Shown: positions 7,618-63,158, numbered from the stretch's first letter. The stretch is DNA of 64,000 bases from Chthonomonadaceae bacterium (GCA_965246825.1 OZ251990.1:3894541-3958540), one strand, 5' to 3'. A program made the numbers and translations. The notes: generated by a model not told the origin, from the letters alone.

Positions 7618-7620
7618 GCC

Positions 7621-42485: not shown

Positions 42486-42591
42486 CCGTTTCTCTTTGTT
42501 CTTGACTTTTTTCTTTCGCGGCTCCGGTTTTTTGCCCAGGCAGCCGATCCGTCCAAAGGAGAAAAGTCCAACCCTGAAAGCGAATTTTGAA

Positions 42592-43221
42592 ATGCTGACA
42601 AGAAAAATTCATCTCATCGGCGGGAGTGCGCTGGCACTACTCGGCATGGGAATCGGAGCGAACGCGCAGGTGCTGCAATTCACCCCGCCCCGTGCCTCCG
42701 ACAACACAAATCACCTGATTACCTTCAGTTTGACGGTGGACAGGGGGGCTGCGCCTGCAGTCGCTTGGGGAACCGACCTTACCCTGGCCGACCCTTCCAC
42801 CCTGCAATTCGTTTCCGATTTCGGCGGAGCGGGAAAGCCGTTTCTTTCCACACAGCCGTTTTTCGATCTCGACCTCAGCAGTGCCTTCACCCCTGGCAGT
42901 GCAACGCTGAATCTGAACTTTCTCAATTCCGTCTCCGGGCTGACGCTGGGGGGAACCGGCTCGGTGGTTTTAGGCCAGTTTCAGGTGCGCGTCTTAAAAG
43001 ACCCCGGTCTTTCCGGTTCGGTGATTTCGATTGCCGACCTCGCCACGCCTCCGCTCGGCTCCGCGCTGGAAGACGCCGACGGCAACAATCTGCTCGTCGG
43101 CGTCTCCAGCGGGCTGGTGACCCAGAAGTTCCCCTCCCCGGAACCGGAGGGGTGGCTTGCGATGGCCAGTGGTTCCGCGATGTCCCTGTACCTGCTCCGC
43201 CGCAAGCGAAGCCGGGCCTGA
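42592..43221 (+). CDS. PEP-CTERM sorting-domain protein
   Basis: Signal peptide, then C-terminal ...FPSPEPEGWLAMASGSAMSLYLLRRKRSRA (PEP motif, TM helix, basic tail). Confidence 0.6.
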   Translation: MLTRKIHLIGGSALALLGMGIGANAQVLQFTPPRASDNTNHLITFSLTVDRGAAPAVAWGTDLTLADPSTLQFVSDFGGAGKPFLSTQPFFDLDLSSAFTPGSATLNLNFLNSVSGLTLGGTGSVVLGQFQVRVLKDPGLSGSVISIADLATPPLGSALEDADGNNLLVGVSSGLVTQKFPSPEPEGWLAMASGSAMSLYLLRRKRSRA

Positions 43222-43298
43222 TCGGTTTTTGGGATGCCTTTCAAGTGCTATTTCTGTGTTTTGTCTGAGTGATGTGTTTCAGTAAAAGGAGTTCTATT

Positions 43299-45920
43299 GT
43301 GCAGCGCAAACTTTCTCTTCTCGCCCCTCTGATGGCTTTGGCCGCCTCCGGCGTCGCCGCTCAAACCGTGGCCCCGGTTCCTTCTCTGATGAATTTTCAG
43401 GGACGTCTCGCCAAGCCCGACGGCACTCCCGTTGCCGACGGGGTTTACAGCATTCGCTTTTCTCTTTGGGATGCCGCGACGGGTGGAAACGAAAAGTGGA
43501 ACCAGACCGTTTCCCCCGTCAATGTTCGTAACGGCACGTTCGCGACCCTGCTCAATGTGGGCAGCGGGCCTTCCGACCTCTTTGCCGACAACCGCTGGCT
43601 GGAAATAAAAATCGGCACAAATGCCCCGCTGACAAACCGGCAGCAGCTTGTGTCGGTGGCGTTTGCCCTTAAAGCGAACACGGTTCCCGACAATTCAATT
43701 ACCGCTGCCAAAATCGCCGACGGTACGATCACTGCCACCAAACTTTCCACCGGCCTGACGGTTACACCCGGCGGGGCGGCGGGCGGTGACCTCACCGGCA
43801 TCTATCCCAACCCCACCCTTGCCACGCTGGGCACTTCCCTCTACAAAGTCTCCGGTACGCTGATGTCGGCGACCAATACGAGCCTGACGGTGGATCAATC
43901 GCAGACAAACGCGCCGCTGCTCATCACCGATTATGGCTGGCAGTCTTTTACGCCCGCCGCAAACAGCAAACTGACGAGCCTCGACATCTGGATCGGAACC
44001 TCCACCGGAGTCGCCCATGGAGCCACTCTGACGATTTACGCCGGAGAGGGAAATACCGGAACGGTGCTTCAGTCGCAAACGGTGAACGTTCAGCCGACAA
44101 TCGGTTTTCAGCATTTCGATCTCAGCACCTCGGTCGCTTTGGCGGCGGGTCTGAAATACACTTACTCGATTGGCTCTTATGCCCCGCTCCGTCTGGGCTA
44201 CTCCACCGGCAATCCCTATCCCAATGGGAAAGCCGATGCTGGGGACACGCTGGACTACGCCTTCCGAACCTACATTCAGGCCTCTGCCAGTTCCCAGCTG
44301 ACGGCACTGGCTCCGTTTCTTTTCTCGAACACCACGCAGGCTTCCGAGCGTTTCCGATTGAGCGGGCAGGAGTATTATCAGGCATCGAACACCTCGGCAG
44401 ACGGCATCTCGTTTATTCTGGGCTTAAACCGCGCCAACAACCGTCAGCTGTGGATTATGGACAGTGCCCGCCTGACCCCCAATATGGTCAACTCTTCGCT
44501 GCAGCTCTCTCCGGGCGGAGACCTCTATCCCTCGGCGATCAATGCGATGTCCTCGGACGGAAACACCCCTCAAACGCTCACGCTTCAGCCCGGCGGCGGC
44601 AGTCTCGGAATTGGAACCTACTCGCCGACCACCAAACTGGACGTGAACGGCAACCTCTCCCTGACGGACACCGGAAGCATCGCCATCGCCTTTAAGGGCA
44701 ACGGCGAAATCAGCGCGGATACGGGCATCGGGCATCCCGGTGACGGGCAACTCACCTTCTGGGCCGATGCAGGGGAGCAGATGCGCTTGAAGGGAGGGAA
44801 CTTCGGCATTGGCACGAACAACCCGGAAAAACGGCTTCATGTGGCGGGCGATGTTTTGCTGAACAACACCAATATCCTTTATGGAAAAAACTCTGCCGGA
44901 GCGAACGAAGGGGTGCTCTGGCCCCGCTGGAGCGACAACGGAACTTACCTCAACTTTGGAACAGGCGGCTTTTTCATCCGCTCCAACGACAGCATCCCTC
45001 GGATGTTCGTCACCAATTCGGGAAACGTTGGAATTGGAACAACTAGTCCGGGCGCGAAATTCGATGTGCGCGGCGGCAGTGCCGTCGTCACCAATGCTTC
45101 CGGGGCGAATCGCGTTATCAGCGGGCTGAATACCGGGGTAGACGCGGGCTATTTCCAGATCATCAACGGCAATAACAATCTAATTGCCGGTTTCGGTGGA
45201 GACAACAACGGCGGCAGTCTGTATGTACGGGACGGGGCGAATGCGACCAAATTTTCTGTTGACGCCAGCGGGTATGTCAATGCAGCAAATGGAGGCAGCT
45301 TCGGTAATGTCACCTTGCACAATGCGGGCAACTACAGCGCGATCCGCGCTTACAACAGCTCTCCCATCGTGAACGGAGTGAGCTACCCAACCATTTACGC
45401 CCAAAACTACAGCGGCGGACTGGCACTGTTTGCCGTTGGAGCGATTGGTTCCAGCATCAAAAACTTCATCATTGACCACCCGCTCGATCCGGGAAACAAA
45501 TACCTCGTTCATGCGAGCGTAGAAAGCGACAAGGCGCAAAATATGTACAATGGAACCGTTAAACTTGACGCAGAAGGCAAAGCCTGGGTGAAACTCCCCG
45601 ATTGGTTTGAGGCTCTCAACAAAGATTTTACCTATCAGCTGACCTGCATCGGCGGCTATGCTCAGGTTTATATCGCGCACGAAGTAAAGGACAATCAATT
45701 CCAGATTGCGGGCGGAGGGCCGAACATGAAGGTTTCCTGGCAGGTGACCGGGGTTCGCCACGACGCCTACATCAATGCTTACCCGATGAGTGTGGTGCAG
45801 GACAAAGGCGCGGATCGCGGCAAATATCTGAACCCTGTCCTGTTCGGGCAGCCCGCCTCCAAAGGCGGCGTCATGCAGGCCCCCGCAGCCCCGATCACCC
45901 CCGCACAGGAAAATAAATAG
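43299..45920 (+). CDS. large secreted protein (873 aa), fibre/adhesin-like, function unknown
   Basis: Start set to GTG 43299, 7 nt after an AAAGGAG ribosome-binding site, which gives signal peptide KLSLLAPLMALAASGVAAQ. Gly/Asn/Thr-rich beta-type repeats and a distinct ~150-aa C-terminal domain (IIDHPLDPGNKYLVHASVESD...). Confidence 0.5.
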   Translation: MQRKLSLLAPLMALAASGVAAQTVAPVPSLMNFQGRLAKPDGTPVADGVYSIRFSLWDAATGGNEKWNQTVSPVNVRNGTFATLLNVGSGPSDLFADNRWLEIKIGTNAPLTNRQQLVSVAFALKANTVPDNSITAAKIADGTITATKLSTGLTVTPGGAAGGDLTGIYPNPTLATLGTSLYKVSGTLMSATNTSLTVDQSQTNAPLLITDYGWQSFTPAANSKLTSLDIWIGTSTGVAHGATLTIYAGEGNTGTVLQSQTVNVQPTIGFQHFDLSTSVALAAGLKYTYSIGSYAPLRLGYSTGNPYPNGKADAGDTLDYAFRTYIQASASSQLTALAPFLFSNTTQASERFRLSGQEYYQASNTSADGISFILGLNRANNRQLWIMDSARLTPNMVNSSLQLSPGGDLYPSAINAMSSDGNTPQTLTLQPGGGSLGIGTYSPTTKLDVNGNLSLTDTGSIAIAFKGNGEISADTGIGHPGDGQLTFWADAGEQMRLKGGNFGIGTNNPEKRLHVAGDVLLNNTNILYGKNSAGANEGVLWPRWSDNGTYLNFGTGGFFIRSNDSIPRMFVTNSGNVGIGTTSPGAKFDVRGGSAVVTNASGANRVISGLNTGVDAGYFQIINGNNNLIAGFGGDNNGGSLYVRDGANATKFSVDASGYVNAANGGSFGNVTLHNAGNYSAIRAYNSSPIVNGVSYPTIYAQNYSGGLALFAVGAIGSSIKNFIIDHPLDPGNKYLVHASVESDKAQNMYNGTVKLDAEGKAWVKLPDWFEALNKDFTYQLTCIGGYAQVYIAHEVKDNQFQIAGGGPNMKVSWQVTGVRHDAYINAYPMSVVQDKGADRGKYLNPVLFGQPASKGGVMQAPAAPITPAQENK

Positions 45921-46925: not shown

Positions 46926-48461
46926 TTAAATGGGCTGGGAGAGGCGGGTGATCTCGGCGAAATCGGCTTTGAGATGGGTGTACAGCGAGCGGTAAAGCGG
47001 ATAATAGGCGTCGTAGCGGGCTTTGTTCGCGGCGTTCGAGGCCGTTTCGCTGTTGACGCGAATGGTGGTTCGGCAGGCTTCCTCGACCGAGGGGTAAACC
47101 CCGGTCCCCACCCCGGCCAGCAGAGCCGCTCCCAATGCAGGGCCTTCGTCCACATCAATCGTGACATGAGGATAGCCGGTGACATCCGCTTGAATCTGCC
47201 GCCAGAGCGGGCTTCGCGCCCCGCCGCCGGACGCCCTCACCTGCGTGATGGGAATTTGCATTTCTTCCATGATCGCAAACGAGTCGCGCAGCCCAAACGA
47301 AACGCCCTCCAGCACGGCGCGGGCCGTATGCGCTTTCGTGGTTCGGCGAGTCAGCCCGAAAAAGACGCCGCGAGCATTGGCATCGGGATAGGGGGTGCGC
47401 TCACCGGTGAGGTAGGGCAGAAAAATCAATCCCTCTGCTCCGACGGAGACGGTGGCGGCTTCATCGCAGATAATCTCATAAGGGTCTTTGAGAAGTGTGG
47501 AAGCAATCGCTTTTTCCGGGTGGCAGAAGGTGTCTCGATACCACTGCAGCGATCCGCCTGCCGAGAGCATAACGCCCATGAGATGCCATTTGCCGGGAAC
47601 CGCATGGCAGAAAGTGTGCATTCGCAGGTCTTTATCTACGGTCGGGGCTTCGCTGAAAGCAAATACCACCCCCGATGTTCCGGTGACCGCCGACACGATC
47701 CCGCTTTCGACAATGCCGTTTCCGACGGCTCCCGCCGCCTGATCGCCGCCGCCGCCGACTACCGGAGTGCCGGGCTTCAGCCCGGTGAGTGCCGCTGCCC
47801 GCTCCGAAATTTTTCCGCTGACCTCGACCGACTCAAAGGAGCGCGGCATCCAGTCTTTTGGAATTCCCACTGCTTCGAGCACCTCTTCAGACCAGTTTCG
47901 CTTTTTAACGTTAAACAGGGCCGTGCCCGATGCATCCGAAACTTCGGTGGCGTATTCCCCGGTCAGCGTTAAGCGGACGTAATCTTTCGGCAGCAGAACT
48001 TTCGCAACCCGTGCGTACTGCTCCGGTTCGTGCCTGCGCAGCCAGAGGATTTTCGGAGCCGTGAAGCCGGTGAGTACGGGATTGGAGATTTCTTCTGTAA
48101 GACGATCCTCCCCCACCGTGCGGGTCATCTCCTCACACTCCGCCTGAGTGCGCTGATCGTTCCAGAGTATCGCGGGCCGGATCACTTCGCCGTCGGCATC
48201 CAGAAAAACGGAGCCGTGCATCTGTCCCGATAATCCGACACCGCGAACTTCTGCCGGGGAAACCGCCGACTTTTCCAGCACTTCCCGGATCGTGGCAAAG
48301 GCGGCATCACGCCAGTGGTGCGGGTTTTGCTCGCTCCAGAGCGGACGGGGAGAATCAAGCGGATACTCGCGCAGGGCACGTGCCTTCACCTGTCCGGTTT
48401 CGTCAATCAGAATGGTTTTGGTTCCACTCGTGCCAATATCAACTCCGATGAGAAAGGGCAT
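46926..48461 (-). CDS. xylB: xylulokinase (FGGY carbohydrate kinase)
   Basis: MPFLIGVDIGTSGTKTILID and the FGGY N/C signatures. Confidence 0.8.
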   Translation of the reverse strand: MPFLIGVDIGTSGTKTILIDETGQVKARALREYPLDSPRPLWSEQNPHHWRDAAFATIREVLEKSAVSPAEVRGVGLSGQMHGSVFLDADGEVIRPAILWNDQRTQAECEEMTRTVGEDRLTEEISNPVLTGFTAPKILWLRRHEPEQYARVAKVLLPKDYVRLTLTGEYATEVSDASGTALFNVKKRNWSEEVLEAVGIPKDWMPRSFESVEVSGKISERAAALTGLKPGTPVVGGGGDQAAGAVGNGIVESGIVSAVTGTSGVVFAFSEAPTVDKDLRMHTFCHAVPGKWHLMGVMLSAGGSLQWYRDTFCHPEKAIASTLLKDPYEIICDEAATVSVGAEGLIFLPYLTGERTPYPDANARGVFFGLTRRTTKAHTARAVLEGVSFGLRDSFAIMEEMQIPITQVRASGGGARSPLWRQIQADVTGYPHVTIDVDEGPALGAALLAGVGTGVYPSVEEACRTTIRVNSETASNAANKARYDAYYPLYRSLYTHLKADFAEITRLSQPI

Positions 48462-48559
48462 AAAAAACTCCAGAGTAGGGAACAGGGGTAAGGGAGCAGG
48501 AAAAACTCAGTGCCAGGACTCGATCTGGCTTCTGATCCCTTATTCCCAACCCCGATTCC

Positions 48560-50047
48560 CTACAGAATGTAGCGGCTGAGGTCTTCGTTTTTGGCAATCG
48601 TTTCCAGTTTCTCGCGGACATAGGCTCCGTCGAGGTGAACAGTTTTGTTGTCGAGGTCGGGAGCATCGAAAGAAAGGTCTTCGAGTAATTTTTCTATCAC
48701 GGTGTGCAGCCGCCGCGCCCCGATGTTTTCGGAAGTTCGATTGACCTCCGCAGCGATCCGGGCGAGTTCGTTGATCGAATCGTCGGAAAAGTCGAGCGAT
48801 ACGCCTTCGGTGGCGAGCAGGGCGACATACTGCCGGGTGAGGGCGTTTTTCGGCTCGGTAAGAATGCGCTTGAAGTCCGCTTCCGTCAGCGACTCCAGCT
48901 CCACGCGGATCGGCAGCCGCCCCTGAAGTTCGGGTATCAAATCGGAGGGCTTGGAAACATGAAACGCACCGGCAGCAATAAACAAAATATGATCAGTTTT
49001 CACCGGCCCAAATTTCGTGGTGACCGTCGAGCCTTCGATGATAGGCAGAATGTCGCGCTGCACCCCCTCGCGGGAAACATCCGGCCCTCCGCCGCCGTTT
49101 CCTGCCGACTTTCCACCTGCAATTTTATCAATTTCGTCAACAAAAATAATGCCGCTCTGCTCGGTGCGTTCAATCGCTTCGCGGGTCAGGGCATCCCGGT
49201 CAATCAGCAGTCCGGCCTCTTCTTCGGCAAAAATCTTTTTCGCCTCTCCAATCGTCACATTCCGCTGTTTGCTTTTACGGGGCATCAGGTTGCCGAGCGC
49301 ACTCTGCATATCCATCCCCATTTCTTCCATGCCGCCCGGTGAAAACACTTGCATAAAAGGCATATTCGGGGACTCTTCGACGGTGACATTCACTGGGTCT
49401 TCGTCTTTGACGCCGGATTTTACCTGATCGAGCAGCACTTTGCGGATGCGCTCGTAGCGGGCATGATCTTTTTTTTCTTCTTCGTCGTCCTGCTCTTTTT
49501 CTTCCGGTTCCGGGGGAGGCGTGGGAAGGCTCATTCCGCCGCCGGGATTGAAGAACTGACGGATCGCTTCCGCCATGTCTTTCGTGCCCTCTTCCGTGCG
49601 TTTACGGGCGGATTTGCGCGGCGCAGGCTGCAAAATATCCACGATGCGCTCGACGGCCCGGCGTTCGGCTTCCTCGCGCACCTCTTCTTTCTTTTCGTTT
49701 TCAACCAAGCGGATGGCGACTTGAACTAAATCACGGATCATGCTGTCCACATCGCGCCCGACATACCCGACTTCTGTGAATTTCGTGGCTTCCACCTTCA
49801 CAAAGGGAGCACGGGCGAGGGTTGCCAGACGACGGGCGATTTCGGTTTTGCCGCACCCGGTAGGGCCGATCATCAAGATGTTTTTGGGAATCACTTCGTC
49901 ACGCAGGTCTTCGCCCAAAAGTCGGCGGCGGTAGCGATTGCGGAGCGCAATCGCCACTGCCCGTTTCGCGCCATGCTGCCCCACAATATAACGATCCAGT
50001 TCCGCGACAATCTGAACCGGTGTTAAGTTCTCAATCATTTCTGCCAT
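48560..50047 (-). CDS. hslU: ATP-dependent protease ATPase subunit HslU
   Basis: [21 protein letters not shown]...[16 protein letters not shown], plus sensor and I-domain. No hslV is adjacent on either side. Confidence 0.9.
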
Positions 50048-50077
50048 CCCCGCACTGCTCCCTCATTTGGTGTCCTT

Positions 50078-51250
50078 TTAGTATAGCACGGAGGGGAAAC
50101 GGAATTCGCTTCGATCCAGGGTCGGTTTCTCCTCCGCTGCCCACTGCGCCAGAGCCTCGCCGATGGCGGCGGAGTGCTTGAACCCGTGCCCCGAACAGGG
50201 TGACGCCACAAAAACTTGTGGAAATTCCGGCAGGGCATCCAGTAGAAAGCGTGCATCGGGGGCAGCGGTATAAAGGCAGACGCGGGTCGCAGCACATTCG
50301 GTGCTCAAGGCGGGAAAGAAGGGCGCGATATTCTGACGGTGCATTGCCTCGATCTCTGCCTCCGAAACGCTGCGATCCACCGTTTCGGGGGTGGTGGTTT
50401 CGAGATAGGTTTCGGAGGCCGCCTTGACCAGATCGCCCGTTTCATTGAGAGCCGGAAAACCGTAAATCCCGGAGCCGCCGCGATCCTGCTCCCAGATGAA
50501 TACGGGAAAGCGTTCCGGGGAAAAAAGCGCGGGGTTTTCTCGAACCCGAAACCAGTACATCACCTGCCGGTAAACCGAAAGGGAAGCCCGCAGGGAAGGC
50601 AGCAGCTGCGAAACCCAGGCCCCGGCTCCAACGATCACCTTTTCCGCCCGATAAACCTCTCGTTCCGTTCGGATCGTGACGCCCCTCCCCGACGGTTGGG
50701 GAAGAATTTCCAGCACCTGCTCGTTGTAAGCAAGAACGGCTCCCAGCGATTTTGCCCGCTCCAGCTGCGCTTCCACACACGCTTCCGGGCGCACAAACCC
50801 GGCTCCAGGTTCATAGTAGCCGCGTTCGTCCCCGGAAAGCGAGAAGGCAGGAAATCGCGCATTGATGTCGGCGGCGGTCAGCCGTTCGTGCGGAATATGA
50901 AACGCTTCTGCCGTGCGGAGGGTTTGCTCGAAAAAGTTGGGCTTGCCATGAAGCCCTGCTGTTTTCCCGCCCGCAGCAAGAATCAGACCGCCGTTCTGCG
51001 TAAGAAGTGTGCGCCCGGTTTCTGCTTCGAGTTCGCGCCAGAGTTCGTGGGAGCGCAGCACAAACGGAACGTAGGCTGCCCCCTCGCCAATGGCCTGCCG
51101 CGTGACCCGGCTTTCGCCCTGCGTGGAACCGAGTGAATGCGGCGGCGTATACTGATCGAGTCCGATGACGCGCCCTCCCCGCCGGGCCATGTGATAGACG
51201 GCGGCAGCCCCCATCGCTCCCAGCCCCACCACAACGCAGTCGGCGTTCAT
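50078..51250 (-). CDS. FAD-dependent oxidoreductase (DAO/sarcosine-oxidase-like family)
   Basis: N-terminal VVVGLGAMGAAAVYHMARRGGRVIGLDQ (GxGxxG Rossmann) and a C-terminal SGHGFK motif. Overlaps the upstream CHAT gene by 4 nt. Confidence 0.75.
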   Translation of the reverse strand: MNADCVVVGLGAMGAAAVYHMARRGGRVIGLDQYTPPHSLGSTQGESRVTRQAIGEGAAYVPFVLRSHELWRELEAETGRTLLTQNGGLILAAGGKTAGLHGKPNFFEQTLRTAEAFHIPHERLTAADINARFPAFSLSGDERGYYEPGAGFVRPEACVEAQLERAKSLGAVLAYNEQVLEILPQPSGRGVTIRTEREVYRAEKVIVGAGAWVSQLLPSLRASLSVYRQVMYWFRVRENPALFSPERFPVFIWEQDRGGSGIYGFPALNETGDLVKAASETYLETTTPETVDRSVSEAEIEAMHRQNIAPFFPALSTECAATRVCLYTAAPDARFLLDALPEFPQVFVASPCSGHGFKHSAAIGEALAQWAAEEKPTLDRSEFRFPSVLY

Positions 51251-54156
51251 CGCGGGTCTCCGAGCAAAATAAAGGGAGACCAGTAATAAGGGTGGCTGTG
51301 TTTACCGTCCTCTTTCAGATAGAGGGCGGCATTTCGCAGAGCTTCACTTTTTCTCTGTTTCTTCAGAATGAGATTTCGATAGAATGAAGTCATCAAAGCG
51401 GCGGTGGAGGCGTCATCTACCGACCATTGACTGACCACCTGGGTGGGGCAGCCCGCCACAAACAAAGCCCAGGTCAGACCGATGATCCCCTCCCCCTCTT
51501 TGTTTTCCCCGCGTGCCGTATTGCAGGCGGAGAGAACCACCATTTCGGCGTTGAGGTGAAGTCCGGAAATCTCTCTCGCCGTAAGAAAGCCGTCCTCCTG
51601 AGCGTCTTCCGGCTGTGCCAGCACCACCGACGACAACAGCGGTGCGGCGTCGTTGACAAACCCATGCGTGGCAAAATGCACGAATCGGTAATCGCCCATG
51701 CTTTGTTTGACTGTGGTTTCCTGCGCCTTTTTCCCCGTCAGAACGAGGGACGCGGGAAAAAGATCCTGAAGTTCTTTGGCTTCGCGCTGAGTTCCAGGCA
51801 GGGCGGAGATTGCTCCTCCGCGATCTGAGGCAGCAATGAGACGCGCCGGGGTGTCCAGGGGCCGAGCGGGAGAGTCGAGAGGGCGGGAAGGCAGATCGAG
51901 AGGGCGCTGCGCTGAAACACCCTCTGGATCGCCGAAGCGGGCGGTAGTTCCAAAATCGGGGTCGGCACATACCAGCAGGTTTTTGGCGGCTTTGCGGCGG
52001 GCTTTGGAGGTCAGCATGAACTGCGCCCCCGTTGCAGAGTGAGCATAAGCGACCTCAAACCGATTGAGCAGACAGATTTTTTTCGTTCGGTTGGGCAGCA
52101 GGACGGCAAAGGGAACCTCCCACAAAACCCCGTCCGGGCAGATCAGCAGCCGCATTTTGCCTTTCAATTCCGGCTCCACAGGCTTGATGAGAACCCGGTA
52201 AAGTGCCTCGGCCTCGCCCTGAAACGCATTTTTCGGATTGGTGCAGTCCTTGCGAAGAGCACGGCAGCGTTTTTCCAGATCGGAGTGCTGGATTTTGACC
52301 GAGTAGGTTTTCAGGTGCGGCCTGCCGTTGTGCCGGGTGACTACAAACACGGCAAAATAATCTTCTGCCAGCGTTACATATTCCAGCAGGGCCGTTTTGT
52401 CTGGAAGCCACTTTCCAACCTCGTCGAGCGAGGCCGTTTTTGCAATCCGTTTCTGAACCAATTCCGGGTGACGGGCATAGAGAGTTTCGGTCAGCGTTTG
52501 GAGTTGATCTTCCGTTTTTTTGAGCTGCCCCTGAAGCGCAGCAAACCGCTTTTTGGCTCCCACCTCGTTTTCCACGCCTTCTTTCACCATCCGGGCGTTG
52601 AGTGCGTCGGCTTTGCGGCGCAGTTCCTGGTCTTGAAGCCGCTCCTGCGGGGTCAGGGAAGAATCGAGGTTCACTCTGCCGGAGGTAAGTAAATCGAGCA
52701 GCGAACGCGCCTTTGTTTTTTGTGCCAGCTCAAAAGCCTGCGTTTCCTTTTTCAATTCGATCAAGAGGTGCAAATAAGTATAGTAAGCGTCAATGTTGAG
52801 GGCGAGGCTGGAAGTTTTCGCTTCGGAATAGCCTCCGAGATTGGTGCGGTACTGTTCTTGCAGTGCCACAGCCTGCTGAGCATACACAAGTGCCGCTGCC
52901 GGACGCAGGCGAAACCGCTCCGTTTGCGCGGCGTTCTCCAGAGCCTTGGCTTGAATTCGGATTTCGTTGATACGGCGGGTCAGGGCAATGCATTGATTGA
53001 AATAAAGGAGGGCCTGCCGATGGTCTTTTTTTGCGGAATAAGTGAGACCAATTGAGTTGAGTTCGACTGCAGTCTCGGTATTTTTGTGAAGCTCCCGCTG
53101 GATCGCCAGGGCACGAAAAAGATAGGTCAAAGACTTCGCGTAATCTTTGGCGTCGCGGAACTCGCCGCCTAAATTCGCGAGGGAGGCCGCTTCGCCGACC
53201 CGATCCTTTGTTTCCAAAAAGATGGACAGAGATTTCTCGTAAAACTCCACCGCCTTCTTCGAGTTCTTCAACTCGGTGTTCAGTGTTCCGAGGGAAAGAT
53301 AGGTGCGGGCAATCCAGGATTTTTCGCCGAGTTCCAGGCGGATTTTAAGGGCTTGCTGATAATATTCCATCGCCTGAGCGTATTCGCCCAGGTCTTCATA
53401 AAGAACACCGATATTGTTGAGGGTTCCTGCCTGATCCTGCTTGCTGCCGGTTTCCCCGAAAATTGCTGCAGCGGACTGAAAGTACTCCAACCCTTTGCGA
53501 ACATTACCGAGGGTGTTCCAGAGCGTTCCGGCACGAAGATAGATCGTCCCCTTAATCCGCTTGTTGTCAACTTTGGGGAAAATCGAGACTACCTCTTCAT
53601 AGGTTGCTGCCGCTTGTGTTAGGGCTTCCCGCTGAAGTTGCATCAGTCCGAGCTGCTCCAGCGCATAGAGAAAATTGAGGGGATTGTTTTGCTGCCGAAA
53701 AAGCGATACGGCTTCCGCATAGTCTGCCTCCGCTTTTGCCGTCCGGCCCAATTCGAGTTCCATCAGCCCGCTTTTGTACAGGAAAAGCGCGATGCCTTCC
53801 GGGTAGGGGATTTTACGGGAGAGGGCCAGTGCCTGATCGTAGAGGTGCAGTGATTCTTCCCAGTGTTTGCGAAGGTAGGCGAGGTCGCCCAGCCCGCGAG
53901 TCGCTTCGGCCTCTCCCACCGGGTCGTTCAGTTCGCGGGCTTGGGTTAAGGCTTGCTGATCGAGTTTTTCCATGTCCTCCAGTTTCCCGGCTCTTCCGGC
54001 GTCGGCTCCCGCTTTGAGCAGAGTGCGGATTTCGGGTCGCATTTCTTTTTTCGGCGGAATTTGAGCCGAAATCGAAGCCGGGAAGGAAGAGCCGAGAAAA
54101 GCGAAACACCCGGTGATCGCCGAGCACAACAAAGACTGAGGGCGGCAGTGAGGCAT
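51247..54156 (-). CDS. TPR-repeat protein with C-terminal CHAT (caspase-like) protease domain; N-terminal signal peptide
   Basis: Signal peptide MPHCRPQSLLCSAITGCFAFLGSSFPASISAQ, many TPRs, and a C-terminal FVHFATHG...VVLSACNT (His/Cys dyad of CHAT). AGGAG ribosome-binding site before ATG 54156. Confidence 0.75.
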   Translation of the reverse strand: MPHCRPQSLLCSAITGCFAFLGSSFPASISAQIPPKKEMRPEIRTLLKAGADAGRAGKLEDMEKLDQQALTQARELNDPVGEAEATRGLGDLAYLRKHWEESLHLYDQALALSRKIPYPEGIALFLYKSGLMELELGRTAKAEADYAEAVSLFRQQNNPLNFLYALEQLGLMQLQREALTQAAATYEEVVSIFPKVDNKRIKGTIYLRAGTLWNTLGNVRKGLEYFQSAAAIFGETGSKQDQAGTLNNIGVLYEDLGEYAQAMEYYQQALKIRLELGEKSWIARTYLSLGTLNTELKNSKKAVEFYEKSLSIFLETKDRVGEAASLANLGGEFRDAKDYAKSLTYLFRALAIQRELHKNTETAVELNSIGLTYSAKKDHRQALLYFNQCIALTRRINEIRIQAKALENAAQTERFRLRPAAALVYAQQAVALQEQYRTNLGGYSEAKTSSLALNIDAYYTYLHLLIELKKETQAFELAQKTKARSLLDLLTSGRVNLDSSLTPQERLQDQELRRKADALNARMVKEGVENEVGAKKRFAALQGQLKKTEDQLQTLTETLYARHPELVQKRIAKTASLDEVGKWLPDKTALLEYVTLAEDYFAVFVVTRHNGRPHLKTYSVKIQHSDLEKRCRALRKDCTNPKNAFQGEAEALYRVLIKPVEPELKGKMRLLICPDGVLWEVPFAVLLPNRTKKICLLNRFEVAYAHSATGAQFMLTSKARRKAAKNLLVCADPDFGTTARFGDPEGVSAQRPLDLPSRPLDSPARPLDTPARLIAASDRGGAISALPGTQREAKELQDLFPASLVLTGKKAQETTVKQSMGDYRFVHFATHGFVNDAAPLLSSVVLAQPEDAQEDGFLTAREISGLHLNAEMVVLSACNTARGENKEGEGIIGLTWALFVAGCPTQVVSQWSVDDASTAALMTSFYRNLILKKQRKSEALRNAALYLKEDGKHSHPYYWSPFILLGDPR

Positions 54157-54188
54157 GGAACTACTCCTAAACAGTAAATGAGACCGGA

Positions 54189-56972
54189 TTAATGAGGCTG
54201 TTCTTCGGGAGCGGGCTGCGTTTGTGCGAGAGCCTCCGAAATCACTCTCTCCAGCGACTGAGTTTTCAGAAACTCTCTCAAGCGCTCTCTTTCTTCCTGC
54301 GAAGCCCCAGTCGTTTCTGTCATTCGCTGCACTTCCAAAACCACCGGGTCGGGGGAGCGAATTTCACGCAGCAGTCGTTCGGCGGAAAGGAGAAGCAAAA
54401 CGGCGCGGTCGGTGTCGCCGAGCTGCGCGACTGCCTCTCCGAGATTGGCGAGCGCGAACGCAATGCCAGGGACATGGCGCAGGTTGTGCTCGTAGCCCAA
54501 TGCTTCGGAGTAGTGATCCCAGGCCGCCCGGTACTTTTGCTGATAAAATGCCCCGACCCCCAGATTATTGAGGGTTTCGGCAATTCCTCGGCGGTCATCG
54601 AGCCTGCGCCGCAGCTTCAAGGCTTCCTGCAGGTGGGTTTCTGCTTTGACAAAGCGGTCGGGGCCATGCGCTGCATCGCGATGAAACAGCACCCCCAGAT
54701 TGTTATAAACAATAGCAATGCCTACCGTATTTCCGGCAATCTGGAAAAGTTTCAGGGACTGAATAAAATGCTCTTCCGCTTTAGAAAAGGCTTTTTCCTG
54801 CATTTTCACCTGCCCCAGCAAATTTTCTGCTTTGGCAAGCCCGCCGATTTCCTGAGACTCCATCAGCAGCGTTTTCGCCTCCGCGATCAGCTTTCCGGCC
54901 TCTTCCCCCTGTCCATAATCGAAATGAAGTCCAGCGCGTTCCAGCATCAACCGTGCGGTCAGCGAGGGGAAATCGGCTTTGCAGGGATGGATTTGCTCCA
55001 GCCCTGCCTGGAGGGTTTCGGCGGCATCTTGAAGAAATCCCTGCCGGGTCAAGGCAGTTCCTACAGCGAGGGCCAATTCTGCAAACAGCTCCGGGCTTTC
55101 CGATAGGCTCGCCCAATCCAGAGCGGCTTTCAGATTGCTGCGATTGACCTCCAATTCTCTCAGGGCTTCGGCTTCACGTGCGGTACGAGCCTGCCCCAGC
55201 CGTTCCTGAGCAAACCGCAGAAAGTGAGCGGCATGGCGATGACAGACCGCGTTTTCCTGCTGCAATTCCATCAGCTTTTCGGCGGCGTACTCACGCAGGC
55301 TTTCCAGCATCAGAAAGCGTGTTTCTTCTTGGGAGGCATCCATTTCCAGGCGAAAAAACGACTGCTGCCGAAGGGCGATCACGCTCTCGAACACATCGAA
55401 GGCTTCGCACACCGCTTCGGCGTCCGCGAGTGTAAACCCGCCAACAAACACCGACACCTGCGCGAAAACCGATTTGTCTTCGTCGGTAAGAAGGCAGTAA
55501 GACCAGTCAATCGCTCCGCGCAGGGCACGCTGACGGGGAGAAAGGTCGGGCGAACGCGACTGAAGCAGCCGAAAACGTTCATTTAATCGTTGCAAAATCT
55601 GTTTCGGCGTCATCCCCACAATTCTCGATGCGGCCAGTTCCATCGCCAGTGGAACCCCTTCAAGCCGCTCGCAGAGGGTTTCCACCTCGGTTCGGTTTTC
55701 ATCCGTCAGGGTAAAATCGGGCCGAAATTCCGCCGCTCGCTCCACAAAGAGACGGGCAGACTCCACCCGGCTCATCGGCATGAGTTCCAACACCGTTTCG
55801 CCCCGCACCTCCAAGGCCCGCCGGGAAGTGACCAGACATTTGATTTGCTGGGCGGCACTGAGCAGGTCGCGCACGATGAGGGCGGCGTTTTGGATTTGTT
55901 CGAGGTTATCTAAGATCAGCAGAGCGCGTTTGTCACGCAAAGCCCCAAAAATCTGCTCTTTAATGCTGGGGGTCGGCTGGAGGATCAAAGCCAGGTGTTC
56001 GGCAATGCGGCGCACCATTTCGTCGGCGGTTCGCGTTTGTTCCAGGTCAAACCACCAGACCCCATCGGAAAATTGTTCGATCACCCTTTCCCCGATTTGC
56101 ATAGCGACGCGGGTTTTTCCAATTCCGGCAAACCCAGTCACCGTAAAAAGGCGGTGCGTGGCCTTTTTTACCAGATCGGCCCACTCGGAAATTTCGGTTT
56201 CGCGTCCGACAAAAGCCGTCAGCTGCTGGGGCAGATTCTGGATCGTTGTTTTTTGCGCCTGAAGAGAGGGAAAGTCTGCTCGAAGCCCTGCGTGAACGAG
56301 CTGGTAAATACGGATTTGTTCGATGTCACGAAGCCGATGGGAGCCGAGGTCGCGAAGCGACGCGCCCTGCGGAAGCCCCTCCCGCAACAGCGCAAAAGTG
56401 GTATCGGAAAGCAAAATCTGCTCTCCGTAAGCCAATTCAAGCAGCCGGGAAGCCCGGTTCAGAGGCTGTCCATAATAGTCGCTGCCCCGCAGTTCCGCCG
56501 AACCGGTGTTAAGGGCCATTCGTACTTTCAGAGAGGTGCGGGCATCCCACGCCTCTTTTTGCAGTTCTGTTTGTGCGGTCCAGGCTCCCGCTACGGCAGA
56601 GCGCACATCGGCGAACACCGCATAAAACGCATCTCCCGCCGTTTTGAAGATTTGGCCGTCGCACCCTTCAACGGCCTGACGAATGATTTCATCGTGGCGT
56701 GCCAAAGCAGTTCGCATTGCTTCCGGGTAAAACTCCCAGAGCCGCGAACTTCCTTCGATGTCGGTAAACAAAAAAGTGAGGGTTCCGCTTGGTAAAAGCA
56801 CAAACTTTCCTCTGCTCGCGCCAGCGCGATGGATCCTTCGAGATACCGCTCTATTCGGCACACCGAAAGGGTTTTCCTTTTTAGAACGGAGGGGCACACG
56901 GCTTAAACTCACTCGGCGAGAAAAACCGAACTTATTTTCGAGGTTTGTGCGGTTAAGCGAAAGAGCGTACAT
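54189..56972 (-). CDS. class III adenylate/guanylate cyclase domain fused to NB-ARC-like STAND NTPase and TPR repeats
   Basis: Cyclase motifs FLFTDIEGSSRLWE, KTAGDAFYAVF and LNTGSAELRG. P-loop LFTVTGFAGIGKTRVA, an LVTSRRALEVRGE motif, then TPRs. Start uncertain: ATG 56972 is used here, and the maximal ORF reaches 57029. Confidence 0.7.
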   Translation of the reverse strand: MYALSLNRTNLENKFGFSRRVSLSRVPLRSKKENPFGVPNRAVSRRIHRAGASRGKFVLLPSGTLTFLFTDIEGSSRLWEFYPEAMRTALARHDEIIRQAVEGCDGQIFKTAGDAFYAVFADVRSAVAGAWTAQTELQKEAWDARTSLKVRMALNTGSAELRGSDYYGQPLNRASRLLELAYGEQILLSDTTFALLREGLPQGASLRDLGSHRLRDIEQIRIYQLVHAGLRADFPSLQAQKTTIQNLPQQLTAFVGRETEISEWADLVKKATHRLFTVTGFAGIGKTRVAMQIGERVIEQFSDGVWWFDLEQTRTADEMVRRIAEHLALILQPTPSIKEQIFGALRDKRALLILDNLEQIQNAALIVRDLLSAAQQIKCLVTSRRALEVRGETVLELMPMSRVESARLFVERAAEFRPDFTLTDENRTEVETLCERLEGVPLAMELAASRIVGMTPKQILQRLNERFRLLQSRSPDLSPRQRALRGAIDWSYCLLTDEDKSVFAQVSVFVGGFTLADAEAVCEAFDVFESVIALRQQSFFRLEMDASQEETRFLMLESLREYAAEKLMELQQENAVCHRHAAHFLRFAQERLGQARTAREAEALRELEVNRSNLKAALDWASLSESPELFAELALAVGTALTRQGFLQDAAETLQAGLEQIHPCKADFPSLTARLMLERAGLHFDYGQGEEAGKLIAEAKTLLMESQEIGGLAKAENLLGQVKMQEKAFSKAEEHFIQSLKLFQIAGNTVGIAIVYNNLGVLFHRDAAHGPDRFVKAETHLQEALKLRRRLDDRRGIAETLNNLGVGAFYQQKYRAAWDHYSEALGYEHNLRHVPGIAFALANLGEAVAQLGDTDRAVLLLLSAERLLREIRSPDPVVLEVQRMTETTGASQEERERLREFLKTQSLERVISEALAQTQPAPEEQPH

Positions 56973-56978
56973 TCCTTT

Positions 56979-58286
56979 GTGTCGGCGCGAGAAAAGGAAA
57001 CGGAATTGAGCGATTTGCAGGACGGACAATTGATAGAACGCTACGTGGAAGCAGGCTCAGAGCGAGCCTTCAGTGAGCTGGGGAGGCGCTACGCTCGGCT
57101 CGTTTACTCTACTTGCCTGCGTGAACTCCATGACCGCTCGCTGGCAGAAGAGGCTTCTCAGGCGGTGTTTCTCCTGCTCGCCCGCAAGGGGAAATCACTC
57201 ACCCGTCAGGCTTCAGTTGCGGGATGGCTTTTCACGGCATCCCGGCTTGTGTCGCAAAATCTGCGAAAACAGGAGAGGCGGCGCAAATTCATGGAAGAGA
57301 GGGCAGCAGGCGAAATGACCGATCCCCCGATCCCCCCGGAAAACGCGCTTTGGGAAGGCTTGGAACCCCACCTCAATACCGCTCTGGCTCACTTGAAACC
57401 GGGGGATCGTGAGGCGATCCTTCTGCGCTTTTTCGAGGAGCGAAGTTTTGCGGAGACCGGAGCCGCCTTGGGATTATCGGAAAATACTGCCCGAATGAAA
57501 GTGACTCGTGCCCTCGACAAACTGAGGCGGCAGCTTGCAAAGGCCGGGGTTGTCGTCTCCGTCACTGTGCTGGCGGCTCTGCTTCCGCAGTATGGGGCGC
57601 GGGCTTCCTCCTCCGTATTGGCTCAGGCGATCCCGCAAATTGCCGCAGGCATGGCCGCCTCCTCCCTGGCTCCTTTTTCGGGGCGGGCGCAGGCTCTGGC
57701 TCGCACCGCTCAACGGGCTCAGCAGTTCTCTTTTTCCAGAAAGGCCGCTTTTTATCTGGTGCTCGGCACTTCGGGAGCACTGCTGGGCGGAGCAAAACTC
57801 AAGACGTACCGAGAGCCGCTCGTTCTGGCTGAAACCCGGCGGGCGGCTTTCGCCTCCCTCGCCGGAACCTGGAGTGGAACCCTGGAATACGCCGATGACG
57901 GAGACGGAGCGCACCACACCTACCCCACCACCCTTGTTCTGTCCGCCGACCCAGCAGCGGGAACGCTTCAATACCGCGCCGCCTATGCGGGTTCAAGCCG
58001 CGTGGACGCCTGGACGGGATCGCTCGACCTTAAATCGGGGCAGTTCACCACCAGTGGAATTCAAGACGGCAGGCCAAAACGTCTGGTCTACCTTGTGGAG
58101 GGACTGGAGGCGTTCGTCAAAAAAACCGGGGGATTCATCATGACCACCCATGATCCTTTTGCTCACTGGGATACCCGGCAGACGATTGTCCAAAAGGGCA
58201 GCCGCCTGACCTGGAGCGAAGAAGTGCGACCGAACGACGGGCAGTACCGTTTTCGCAACCGCTTCGAGCTTGTCCGTACCTTCTGA
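56979..58286 (+). CDS. ECF sigma factor fused to a transmembrane helix and ~230-aa C-terminal extracytoplasmic domain
   Basis: Region 2 (RAFSELGRRYARLVYSTCLR...EEASQAVFLLLARK), region 4 (ILLRFFEERSFAETGAALGLSENTARMKVTRALDKLR), TM helix AGVVVSVTVLAALLP, then an unrelated C-terminal domain. GTG start. Confidence 0.65.
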   Translation: MSAREKETELSDLQDGQLIERYVEAGSERAFSELGRRYARLVYSTCLRELHDRSLAEEASQAVFLLLARKGKSLTRQASVAGWLFTASRLVSQNLRKQERRRKFMEERAAGEMTDPPIPPENALWEGLEPHLNTALAHLKPGDREAILLRFFEERSFAETGAALGLSENTARMKVTRALDKLRRQLAKAGVVVSVTVLAALLPQYGARASSSVLAQAIPQIAAGMAASSLAPFSGRAQALARTAQRAQQFSFSRKAAFYLVLGTSGALLGGAKLKTYREPLVLAETRRAAFASLAGTWSGTLEYADDGDGAHHTYPTTLVLSADPAAGTLQYRAAYAGSSRVDAWTGSLDLKSGQFTTSGIQDGRPKRLVYLVEGLEAFVKKTGGFIMTTHDPFAHWDTRQTIVQKGSRLTWSEEVRPNDGQYRFRNRFELVRTF

Positions 58287-60694: not shown

Positions 60695-62170
60695 TTACCC
60701 AACGCTTTTGAGAAAGCGAGCCGCCTCTTTCTCATAAGTATGGAAGGGGTTTTTGAGATCGAGCTGCTTGTTGCGTTCCACATAAATGGCGTCCCAGTCA
60801 ATGACGTAACGGGCATTCGGTTTGGTGAGCAAAGTAGAGATGATCTGTCCCCGCCCGGCGGCGCGGGTGTCCGTCGGCGGGCAGGTGATCGCTTTTTGCA
60901 CCTCTTCGTCGGTCACGAGCCGGCGGATCGCCCCCGCCTCTTCCAGCCCATAGTAAAGCCCCTGGGTCGGGTTGACGTTGTGGTATTCGAGATCGAGGCT
61001 TTGCAGCATATCGTCGTGCCAGGTCACGCCGTTTTCTTGAATATAGTCCCGGTAAAGCAGGAATTTCGCCGACCAGTCTAAACGGTCTGCGGTTGAGAGC
61101 GGATCGGTTTCAAGAGCGTCAAGAATCGTTTCCCACTCGCGCAACACGATGTCGGTTTGTTCACTTTTCTGGCCCTGGTATTTTTTGGCGGCATCCAAAT
61201 ACCGACGCTGAAGATCAATCGCCGAGATGGTTTTTCCGTTTCGGAGTTTCACCGTCCAGCGGAATGTAGGGTCACGGGAAATCGAGCGCAGCGTTTCCAG
61301 CGGGTCGGCCACCTCCACATCCTGCGGCACAATTCCCTCTTCGATCAAATCGAGCACCAGACTTGTCGTTCCAACCTTCAGCATCAGCGCGTATTCACTC
61401 ATATTCGACTCGCCGTAGAGAATATGAAGCCGGTGCAGATTGCTGTAGGAATAGTAGGAATCCCATTTCGGGTTGATGATTGCCCGATTGAAACGCACCC
61501 GTGACGAGATGGTTTTGACAATGTGGTCGGCCCGCTGCGACAACTGAAAATCTACCGTTTTGTCAATTTCGACCCCGTAGAAGTTGGAAACCCAAACGTA
61601 ATCCACTTCATGTTCGCCAAGGGTCATGATATTGTTTTTGGAGGAGGGACGAGTTAAACGATGCCCCCCCACCCTGCCGATTCCCGCGAAGATTTGCCGG
61701 GTAACGAGAAAAGGCAGCAAATAAGTGAGGGCGTCGGTAAAAAACCGATCTTCGATTTGTACAAGATAGTTTTCGTGACAGCCGAAGGTGTGCCCGCCAA
61801 AGTGGTCAATGCTGTTGTTATGAAAACTGACCGCCTCATCGAGATCGAGTTCCTGCAGGAGTTGAGCGAGCAAAATGCGTCCTGCCCGGTCGTGGCGCAC
61901 AAGATCGAGCAGATCGGAGCACTCTGCCGTAGCGTATTCCTCGTGGCTCCCGACCGCATCAATGTAGAGACGCCCGCCGTTAGTGAGAAAGCCGCCTGCC
62001 CGCGCCGGTTCAAATGCATAGTCGCGGGCATGAAGATCAATCACGCCCAGTTTCTTTTCATAAAAGGCGTAATCTTTGACCTGCTCGACAATTTCTTCTG
62101 GCGTTCCTACAGAAGGGTCGCGCACCATACAGCCGAATTCCGTCTCAATGCCAAAAATTCGCTTTTCCAT
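60695..62170 (-). CDS. Pup ligase/deamidase family protein (PafA/Dop family; PafA-like by position)
   Basis: MEKRIFGIETEFGCM...GGRLYIDAVGSHEEYATAEC closely parallels the PafA/Dop N-terminus (M..RIMGIETEFG...YLDVGSHPEYATAEC). AGGAA ribosome-binding site. Confidence 0.75.
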   Translation of the reverse strand: MEKRIFGIETEFGCMVRDPSVGTPEEIVEQVKDYAFYEKKLGVIDLHARDYAFEPARAGGFLTNGGRLYIDAVGSHEEYATAECSDLLDLVRHDRAGRILLAQLLQELDLDEAVSFHNNSIDHFGGHTFGCHENYLVQIEDRFFTDALTYLLPFLVTRQIFAGIGRVGGHRLTRPSSKNNIMTLGEHEVDYVWVSNFYGVEIDKTVDFQLSQRADHIVKTISSRVRFNRAIINPKWDSYYSYSNLHRLHILYGESNMSEYALMLKVGTTSLVLDLIEEGIVPQDVEVADPLETLRSISRDPTFRWTVKLRNGKTISAIDLQRRYLDAAKKYQGQKSEQTDIVLREWETILDALETDPLSTADRLDWSAKFLLYRDYIQENGVTWHDDMLQSLDLEYHNVNPTQGLYYGLEEAGAIRRLVTDEEVQKAITCPPTDTRAAGRGQIISTLLTKPNARYVIDWDAIYVERNKQLDLKNPFHTYEKEAARFLKSVG

Positions 62171-62221
62171 TTCGTTCCTGTACCGATTCGTTCTCTCTGC
62201 GTCGGAGAAAACGGAGAGACA

Positions 62222-63016
62222 CTATTGATGCTTGTAGTCAGCGAGCAAAAGGGTCAGGTCTTCTTCCGTCAGCAGACGAAACCGGCTTTCCCGCTTTGTG
62301 TCGCGCTCTAAAATTCCAACCTCGACGCTGCCCGTTTTCAGTTCGTCCAGCAAAAACGCCCGGTTTGCCTCGGCTTCGTCCAGGTCGCGAAGCGGATTGA
62401 GGTCTTCCTCATCGCGGGCGTACTGCGGCTTGATGGCTTCTCGCGCCCCGACAATCCAGGCACTGAGAGCTTTCTGAAGAGCCTCTTCACGCCCAAGGCT
62501 GTGGGAAGCCCCTTCCAGGCGTTCCAGCATTTTGTCCTCGGCATCTTGGCTTCCGGCGATCACGGCGTACTCAGGGTAAATACGAAATTCGCCATCATAA
62601 TTGAGCGTGTAAAATCCGTCACCTTCCGGCTTTTTGCCAATTTCAGCAAAAAGGGCCCGGATGACATAGGGGACGCCGGAGAACATATCTCCATACGATT
62701 GTTTAAGCGAGGGACTGAGCACAAACCCAACTAGACGCTGAAGGGTCACATCGTCGGGGCTGCGCTCAAATCCTTCCTGATGGGCAATTTGAATGGTTTT
62801 GACCCGGACGTTTTCGATGTCGGACTGCATTCCGATGGCCGAAAACATCTGCCGATCATACAATTCATACACTTTTCGCTGCGAGCGGCGCACCGTTAGC
62901 AACAGCATTCCTTTATCGAAACTCACCCCGACAACGGGCGAGCCTTCGCGGAGGCGGTTTTCAACATTGTCTTTTCGGTAGCCAGCGGCTTCCTCACGGT
63001 CATAAGGGGTAAACAT
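62222..63016 (-). CDS. prcA: 20S proteasome alpha subunit (PrcA-like)
   Basis: Start chosen at ATG 63016 (MFTPYDRE... aligns with the PrcA MSFPYF... start). ELYDR and YDG motifs. The maximal ORF starts with GTG at 63043. Confidence 0.7.
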   Translation of the reverse strand: MFTPYDREEAAGYRKDNVENRLREGSPVVGVSFDKGMLLLTVRRSQRKVYELYDRQMFSAIGMQSDIENVRVKTIQIAHQEGFERSPDDVTLQRLVGFVLSPSLKQSYGDMFSGVPYVIRALFAEIGKKPEGDGFYTLNYDGEFRIYPEYAVIAGSQDAEDKMLERLEGASHSLGREEALQKALSAWIVGAREAIKPQYARDEEDLNPLRDLDEAEANRAFLLDELKTGSVEVGILERDTKRESRFRLLTEEDLTLLLADYKHQ

Positions 63017-63158
63017 CAGTGACAATCTTTCATTCTTATCCACAGTTCGGCACAGAAGAGCACAGATTAAAACGCAAATTACGAGAGCATCTCTACTTTT
63101 ATTCGGAATTGGTCATCTCTGTTTTGCTGTACCGGTCTGGGGATCAATCTTCAAACCA

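Follow-up and report, generated by a model that had tools for sequence, protein, structure and literature searches.

The 64,000-nucleotide (nt) stretch of a Chthonomonadaceae genome that we analyzed (GCA_965246825.1 OZ251990.1:3894541-3958540; here called the window, with positions counted from its first letter) carries on its minus strand a gene for a STAND NTPase with a cyclase domain, directly followed by a gene for a TPR-CHAT caspase-like protease that is predicted to be exported, and then by three more genes in the same orientation. A preliminary description had read the five as a single signaling/proteolysis module in which an hslU gene lacking an hslV partner took part. Using open reading frames (ORFs) and matches to Pfam and NCBIfam profiles, we found all five genes where they had been placed and with the identities they had been given. 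In the direction of transcription, these are the cyclase/NB-ARC/TPR STAND gene (54189-57029 as its longest ORF; PF00211, PF00931, and PF13424), the TPR-CHAT gene (51247-54156, 969 amino acids; PF12770 at 246 bits and several TPR families), a gene for a solA-like FAD-dependent amine oxidase (50078-51250; NF008425, 428 bits), hslU, encoding a canonical AAA+ unfoldase (48560-50047; TIGR00390, 630 bits against a cutoff of 362), and the xylulokinase gene xylB (46926-48461; TIGR01312, 583 bits). By domain score and motifs, STAND, CHAT, cyclase, and HslU are each full members of their families. We show below that the first two genes recur as a pair in related bacteria; the module very probably consists of STAND and CHAT, with solA, hslU, and xylB as adjacent bystanders outside it.

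The junctions in this run are short. Between STAND and CHAT we measured 32 nt rather than the 33 bp reported earlier, and the other junctions were as described: a 4-nt overlap between CHAT and solA (ATGA), 30 nt between solA and hslU, and 98 nt between hslU and xylB. Such tight packing and shared orientation had been taken to exceed chance. By crude greedy ORF calls, however, ~91% of the window is coding, the median same-strand gap is ~56 nt, and 63% of such gaps do not exceed 100 nt (40% do not exceed 35 nt). The window also holds other codirectional runs, of 5 and of 10 genes. Because spacing and co-orientation are ordinary for the window, they are uninformative, and synteny alone decides which genes belong together. 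A scan for promoters and terminators gave 26 terminator-like sites against 18.7 expected, with none convincing at the junctions. The five-gene run is a composite and is mostly ordinary gene packing.

Domains and motifs of the two proteins

The longest ORF of the STAND gene opens with a TTG at 57029. This start overlaps the divergent ORF of a sigma factor and adds 76 residues that the homologues lack. Starting instead at a GTG at 56801, which has GGAAAG before it, yields an 870-amino-acid protein that opens at the cyclase domain, and the homologues, which are 850 to 890 amino acids long, begin at that domain as well. Given the resemblance of GGAAAG to a ribosome-binding site and the start of the homologues, the GTG is most likely the start codon, which would place the gene at 54189-56801 (Pfam Guanylate_cyc, NB-ARC, and TPR_12). 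In the 870-residue protein, the class III nucleotidyl cyclase domain covers amino acids 1 to 175 (56277-56801; PF00211 at 41.8 bits against a gathering threshold of 21.9), and all six catalytic positions are intact (D13, K52, D56, D107, N114, and R118, as numbered in the alignment with homologues). They comprise two metal-binding aspartates, a lysine and an aspartate that specify adenine, and the transition-state asparagine and arginine. The metal-binding and transition-state residues were kept in 24 to 25 of 25 homologues. In the PDB, the domain is nearest in sequence to two active adenylate cyclases, GRESAG4 and Ma1120, and its catalytic residues align with theirs. The substrate specificity that the preliminary description had proposed to read from the catalytic residues can thus be read from the Lys/Asp pair, and the predicted enzyme is of the adenylate cyclase type with an intact catalytic set.

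Behind the cyclase lies the NB-ARC/STAND NTPase core (55602-56204; 47.3 bits against 23.5), with the Walker A motif GFAGIGKT and the Walker B motif LLILDNLE, both conserved in the alignment of the 25 homologues. The core is followed by a C-terminal TPR array (54195-55124; TPR_12 and TPR_1), which is the presumed sensor. The N terminus is not hydrophobic, and the protein should therefore be cytoplasmic. In close relatives with the same NB-ARC/TPR chassis, the place of the cyclase is taken by a SARP domain or a protein kinase; across NB-ARC and TPR, a SARP version (P0050) shares 48% identity with the window protein, which itself gave partial NCBIfam matches to AfsR. Among loci in which the gene is linked to CHAT, the output was a class III cyclase in five and SARP/BTAD in two (L174 and L088). 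Because the cyclase is exchanged for SARP or kinase domains in relatives, the output domain of this STAND family is modular. The family is large and paralogous, with 6,698 matches. One close homologue (P0102) has the protein kinase domain as its N-terminal output. The window itself contains a paralogue of the cyclase-STAND gene, which encodes a Trans_reg_C/BTAD/NB-ARC/TPR protein of 1008 amino acids (36192-39218, minus strand); downstream of it lies a T2SSE secretion ATPase gene (34160-35503) and no CHAT gene.

The CHAT protein begins with a predicted Sec-type signal peptide of 31 amino acids (54064-54156), MPHCRPQSLLCSAITGCFAFLGSSFPASISA, followed by Q, with a charged n-region, a hydrophobic core, and an ISA|Q cleavage site. 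Since an AGGAG ribosome-binding site lies 7 nt 5' of the ATG, this hydrophobic N terminus belongs to the CHAT protein. The same layout (n-region, hydrophobic core, and small-x-small|Q) was present in 13 of 14 clade members and in the CHAT partners at L003 and L001. The signal peptide that had been noted earlier is thus supported, as a prediction, by the position of the ribosome-binding site, by N-terminal features, and by conservation in the clade, and the mismatch of compartments between a cytoplasmic STAND protein and a predicted exported CHAT protein is real and conserved. We also considered a lipoprotein signal at ITGC17 and rejected it; the hydrophobic stretch before it does not have the length required, and homologues do not share the motif.

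In an AlphaFold (AF2) model of the CHAT protein (mean predicted local distance difference test score [pLDDT] of 80, predicted template modeling score of 0.64), ~10 TPR pairs are followed by a helical linker and the CHAT domain, and segments 1 to 34, which include the signal peptide, and 742 to 782 (pLDDT below 50) are disordered. The TPR array spans amino acids 41 to 440 (52837-54036); it forms regular helix pairs in the model, and its PDB matches are the TPRs of LGN/Pins. The catalytic dyad, His831 (in FATHGF) and Cys878 (in LSACNT), lies at 51523-51666 in invariant columns of a 13-sequence alignment. Foldseek ranked DdvA as the best match of the model (E value, 3e-17), followed by separase and the Craspase subunit Csx29. 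By Pfam, the protein matched TPR families and CHAT, and no SAVED, cyclic nucleotide-binding (CNB), or STING domain of the kind that serves as the sensor of Pycsar- or CBASS-like effectors was detected. From these features, we predict a cysteine protease that is Sec exported and has its site of action outside the cytoplasm. The TPR-CHAT family had 1,870 matches, and the source genome of the window encodes, elsewhere, a second member of the CHAT clade (P0243, 46% identity).

Within the CHAT domain, in a disordered loop, the protein carries a heptapeptide repeat with a leading arginine, RPLDLPS RPLDSPA RPLDTPA R (51841-51906). Units with a period of 7, in 3 to ~12 copies at the same site, were found in 57 of the 151 nearest representatives of 50%-identity clusters, for example at L003 (15986-16289) and L088 (12874-13030). 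The pattern of the unit is R-[PA]-[ILFV]-x-x-x-[SAD], and its remaining positions are uniform within a protein and differ between proteins. Among 120 word-index matches, the repeat was confined to the closest ones, which form the clade that adjoins STAND genes. Units with identical peptides in homologues differ at ~5 of 21 nt, which implies purifying selection on the peptide rather than recent slippage. Tandem Repeats Finder reported no repeat in the window CHAT gene, where the DNA of the three units is degenerate; the repeat is visible in the protein. Because the array sits beside the active site, it is most likely a pseudo-substrate or a self-processing loop.

Recurrence of the STAND-CHAT pair

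The nearest homologues of STAND, CHAT, and HslU are all in the Armatimonadota (Chthonomonadales, Armatimonas, Capsulimonas, and Abditibacteriaceae). Relatives of the pair were sought from both the STAND and the CHAT side, and ~10 STAND/CHAT loci of the clade were inspected in detail. A STAND gene followed on the same strand by a TPR-CHAT gene, with gaps of 32 to 241 nt, was present in the window and at L003/L004, L001, L089, L090, and L174/L175. At least six independent Armatimonadota contigs show this order, and the flanks, which include an ABC transporter, an HIT protein, glycosidases, and beta-propeller proteins, are different each time. At L003/L004, the TPR-CHAT gene lies directly 3' of a cyclase-STAND gene with a gap of 33 nt; at L001, it is directly downstream of the STAND gene, and L090 has a cyclase-STAND gene and then TPR-CHAT. 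One cyclase-STAND gene is followed by two tandem TPR-CHAT paralogues (1181 and 1001 amino acids) at L089 (10001-16666). At L174/L175, the first gene encodes a SARP(BTAD)/NB-ARC/TPR protein (L174 7028-9946), and TPR-CHAT follows after 54 nt. Looser variants of the pair were seen at four loci (L088, L002, L006, and L094); at L088, a SARP-type STAND gene (5218-8106) lies two small ORFs upstream of CHAT, and at L002, the C terminus of a CHAT gene is immediately upstream of STAND. Every CHAT locus of the clade that we inspected had a STAND neighbor.

Outside this clade, the two families were seldom found together. A similar CHAT gene was present at 1 of 80 more distant STAND loci (L006; GTDB loci retrieved with an alignment of the STAND family, mostly 30 to 40% identity, after a scan with the single STAND protein had returned no relatives). 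As a negative control only, we used 80 distant TPR-CHAT loci from a metagenome scan with a CHAT alignment (mostly 25 to 34% identity), and these had a cyclase neighbor in no case and a STAND neighbor in one. Because the pairing is limited to matching subclades of both families, the association is clade specific. The recurrence of the linked pair with different flanks bears out the expectation that cyclase-STAND and TPR-CHAT co-occur in relatives. The other three genes did not follow the pair. Neither hslU, solA, nor xylB was present at any of 173 related STAND and CHAT loci, and the searches near 84 STAND-family and 80 TPR-CHAT loci likewise found none of them, contrary to their proposed place in the module. 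What is conserved is thus a unit of two genes and not five.

Adjacency could also arise by chance between two families that are abundant and paralogous and have TPRs in common. Both are large, as their match counts show, and the genome encodes a further member of each. However, the arrangement, with its order and strand, is found in no fewer than six independent contexts and is restricted to matching subclades, and the second STAND gene of the window has no CHAT partner, so that adjacency is not a general property of these families. We regard chance as an extremely improbable explanation.

Some neighbors of the pair deserve mention as observations in their own right. Divergent from STAND in the window is the sigma-factor gene (56979-58286, plus strand), which is of the extracytoplasmic function (ECF) type, with regions 2 and 4 within amino acids 36 to 183 and a C-terminal extension of ~250 amino acids that includes a hydrophobic stretch; a sigma gene beside the pair was not conserved in the partner loci inspected. 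Genes for Uma2-family (PF05685) endonuclease-like proteins occur at L088 (13712-14203), L002 (8634-9263), and L085 (5217-5864), in one locus directly 3' of CHAT, and this recurrence probably reflects the abundance of the family in the phylum. Farther away, at 39330-45920 on the plus strand of the window, are ORFs of 1051 amino acids (with a C-terminal type I dockerin), 241 amino acids, and 883 amino acids that had no other Pfam match and may encode surface or secreted proteins.

hslU and its neighborhoods

The case for one signaling/proteolysis operon of all five genes, in which HslU works with STAND/CHAT or is regulated by them, drew on co-orientation, short gaps, the one 4-nt overlap, and the missing hslV. 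That hslU has no hslV partner on either side holds: a tblastn search with HslV sequences found no hslV in the 64-kb window or in the hslU loci of relatives. HslU is full length, and it has the Walker A motif, the GYVG pore loop at amino acid 94, and the C-terminal tail EDLSRYIL. In E. coli, the HslU tail EDLSRFIL docks into HslV and activates it. The exact tail EDLSRYIL was found in 100 of the 120 closest HslU homologues, with conservative variants in the rest, and GYVG was found in 119 of 120. This retention of the HslV-docking tail argues against the earlier suggestion that the orphan HslU works with a protease other than HslV. In full score, GYVG, Walker motifs, and tail, the protein thus resembles the unfoldase of HslUV (ClpYQ); the differences are that hslV is not adjacent, here or in related Chthonomonadales, and that the I-domain (amino acids ~140 to 235) is ~50 amino acids longer than that of E. 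coli and includes a proline- and acid-rich insert. HslU homologues of the clade are of similar length (480 to 527 amino acids).

The neighbors of hslU change even between close relatives. In a relative whose HslU is 89% identical, three divergent genes of unknown function lie upstream and a DUF433 gene lies downstream; at 72% identity, the neighbors are ydjC and small unknown ORFs; and in Chthonomonas calidirosea (69% identity), hslU is beside altronate-dehydratase-like and fructose-bisphosphate aldolase genes. None of the three loci had an hslV, CHAT, STAND, solA, or xylB gene near hslU, and their Pfam lists contained no gene of the proteasome family. The preliminary description had named, as an outcome that would speak against its module, genes scattered independently in related genomes with hslU next to hslV. 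The scattering was found, whereas an hslU next to hslV was not seen, hslU being solitary. Genes that sit in operons in other bacteria are documented to be scattered in C. calidirosea, and Armatimonadetes genomes to be nonoperonic (PMC4959169). Nearly every bacterial phylum has HslV, and it is common for a single organism to possess more than one proteasome homologue (PMC5666114). Because hslU is solitary with varying neighbors and a canonical tail in a phylum with scattered operons, the simplest reading is that it is a dispersed housekeeping gene and that a solitary hslU is normal for the lineage; it probably serves a putative hslV encoded elsewhere. Together with solA and xylB, it is an ordinary housekeeping gene downstream of the pair in a compact genome. 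Set against the absence of the three genes from the related loci, the changing neighbors of hslU, the conserved tail, the typical spacing, and the compartments of HslU (cytoplasmic) and CHAT (with a signal peptide), the five-gene operon is very improbable, and we consider both it and chance adjacency to be effectively excluded.

About 11 kb from hslU, the window also contains a Gram-negative-type 20S proteasome cluster (60695-63989, minus strand), with a Pup-ligase family gene (PF03136, 450 bits) and subunit genes at 62222-63043 (a weak match) and 63159-63989; a cluster of this kind is known from Armatimonadetes (PMC5666114). We considered whether HslU could dock on this 20S proteasome (63159-63989). 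An HbYX motif requires tyrosine in the penultimate position, which is not where the tyrosine of the RYIL tail stands; the tail is of the HslV type, and we rejected this candidate.

Relation to known systems and a possible mechanism

The pair shares features with several known systems. DdvA, the best fold match of the CHAT protein, is a periplasmic TPR-CHAT anti-sigma factor that has been proposed to sense a periplasmic signal and relay it to a cytoplasmic regulator (PMC11506125). In both proteins, a TPR array outside the cytoplasm, a location that is predicted for the CHAT protein, is followed by a caspase-like CHAT fold that has the His-Cys dyad. DdvA, however, has a transmembrane helix, an N-terminal zinc anti-sigma domain, and the ECF sigma partner DdvS, whereas only the ~31-residue signal peptide precedes the TPRs of the CHAT protein, whose partner is a soluble STAND NTPase. 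In addition, sequence identity is 13 to 14%, TM-scores are low (0.25 to 0.28), and arginine heptads are not described for DdvA. With 31 residues before the TPR array, and with a sigma gene that lies two genes away in the window and is absent from the partner loci, the CHAT protein does not have the makeup of a DdvA-type anti-sigma factor.

The STAND protein has the same layout (output, NB-ARC-type NTPase, and TPR) as AfsR/SARP-type and MalT-type regulators and the mycobacterial cyclase-ATPases such as Rv0386, and it differs in that its output is a class III cyclase with the adenine Lys/Asp pair. To our knowledge, a conserved exported CHAT partner is not a described feature of such proteins. 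A TPR-CHAT architecture and fold is also common to Craspase Csx29 (type III-E) and SAVED-CHAT (type III-B), with target-normalized TM-scores of 0.46 to 0.59, and these provide a precedent for CHAT proteases under a neighboring signaling machine. Unlike the predicted exported CHAT protein, which is 12 to 14% identical to them and lacks a detectable SAVED or cyclic nucleotide-binding domain, they are cytoplasmic and CRISPR linked; no cas genes (Cas7-11/gRAMP or Csx30/Csx31) were found among the neighbors in the window or in the partner loci. In predicted conflict systems, STAND proteins are linked to a separate caspase-superfamily protease and occasionally to a cyclic nucleotide cyclase (Kaur, Burroughs, Iyer, and Aravind, eLife 2020 and 2021; PMC8195603). 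Those systems couple in the cytoplasm via shared effector-associated adaptor domains, none of which was found here. The pairing is thus different from both DdvA and the conflict systems in having an exported protease without an anti-sigma domain, no adaptor domain, and a regulatory STAND output. We found no account of a STAND-cyclase/CHAT pairing or of the heptad array in the literature, of which our coverage was incomplete, and nothing specific on CHAT-CHASE2 neighborhoods or orphan hslU.

Class III cyclases need paired domains for catalysis. In the mechanism that we propose, the STAND protein would be a cytoplasmic switch ATPase in which binding of a ligand at the C-terminal TPR sensor leads to nucleotide exchange and oligomerization, so that the N-terminal adenylate cyclase domains would be paired and cyclic AMP (cAMP) made; in the SARP variants, activation of transcription would take the place of cAMP. 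The CHAT protein would be a Sec-exported TPR-CHAT cysteine protease outside the cytoplasm, and the two genes, 32 nt apart, are probably cotranscribed. Because the CHAT partner is constant while the STAND output is swapped, CHAT is linked to the STAND chassis and likely to its input side, where it may sense or process something in the envelope, with the result reported to STAND. We hold this specific mechanism and its direction of signaling to be tentative, possible rather than probable. As a whole, the explanation, which blends the two-gene module with this mechanism, seems to us slightly on the probable side.

Several points weigh against this explanation. The sample of loci inspected is small, at ~10, and the 4-nt overlap with CHAT suggests that in this genome solA is cotranslated with the pair. 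We infer cotranscription, cyclase activity, export, and protease activity alike. A cytoplasmic STAND protein cannot touch an exported protease, and the pair has no conserved neighbor that encodes a transporter or membrane relay, so that which way information flows is a guess. Finally, the SARP variants agree just as well with a scheme of the reverse order, where STAND does the regulating and CHAT is its regulated product.

That scheme, in which STAND controls expression of the CHAT gene directly (SARP) or via cAMP (cyclase), is one of two live rivals, and we consider it unlikely. SARP/AfsR-type and MalT-type STAND regulators usually adjoin their target genes, and at L174, a SARP-STAND gene is directly upstream of CHAT. 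Yet gaps of 32 to 54 nt give scant space for a regulated promoter, and a diffusible global messenger would not need adjacency to its target. The other rival, to which we assign a similarly low probability, is an NLR-like antiphage or conflict system in which STAND senses an invader and CHAT or cAMP executes defense or cell death, or in which the periplasmic TPR-CHAT protein senses a phage protein, as has been proposed for DdvA. Pairs of STAND NTPases and caspase-like proteases are recurrent in predicted conflict systems (PMC8195603), DdvA controls a CBASS-CRISPR defense island (PMC11506125), the number and unit sequence of the heptads vary between homologues, and the STAND family is large and paralogous, all of which would suit defense. 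However, the outputs are regulatory (cyclase or SARP) rather than toxic effectors, an exported protease cannot be a cytoplasmic executioner, the anti-sigma domain and a conserved partner sigma factor are both missing, and the flanks of the window and partner loci contain no other defense, mobile-element, or CRISPR genes. Nor did either protein match a specific component in PADLOC v2; a generic TPR-repeat model matched CHAT (84 bits, 2e-24), other matches were marginal (E values of ~1e-4 to 1e-3), and no Avs, bNACHT, or CHAT-effector model matched STAND or CHAT.

The heptad array invites one further reading, which we think quite improbable. Heptapeptides of CHAT could be released outside the cell through cleavage by CHAT itself or by another protease, reimported, and bound by the STAND TPRs, and the bound STAND protein would then make cAMP or, in the SARP variants, activate transcription. 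RRNPP systems use a cytoplasmic TPR receptor and an adjacent secreted precursor whose peptide, once processed, is taken back up. The layout here is similar, in that a TPR protein with its output at the N terminus would be the receptor and a predicted Sec-exported protein with repeated peptide units is encoded downstream; the parts of such a circuit would be a caspase-like protease and a STAND NTPase. If true, this would be quorum or kin signaling, and the unit sequence could define pherotypes. As a peptide that is conserved despite divergence at its synonymous sites, the array offers a concrete entry to the biochemistry of CHAT specificity and regulation.

Recruitment of an orphan HslU to a caspase-like protease would have been a surprise, and it is not borne out by the evidence. 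What remains is that genes for a cytoplasmic NLR-like switch and a predicted exported caspase-like protease recur as a pair, in which the outputs of the switch, cAMP synthesis or DNA binding, are interchangeable. If the pairing holds, it would be the second case, after DdvA, of a TPR-CHAT protein in extracytoplasmic signal transduction and the first in which an extracytoplasmic TPR-CHAT protein is linked to a STAND NTPase and not to an anti-sigma factor.

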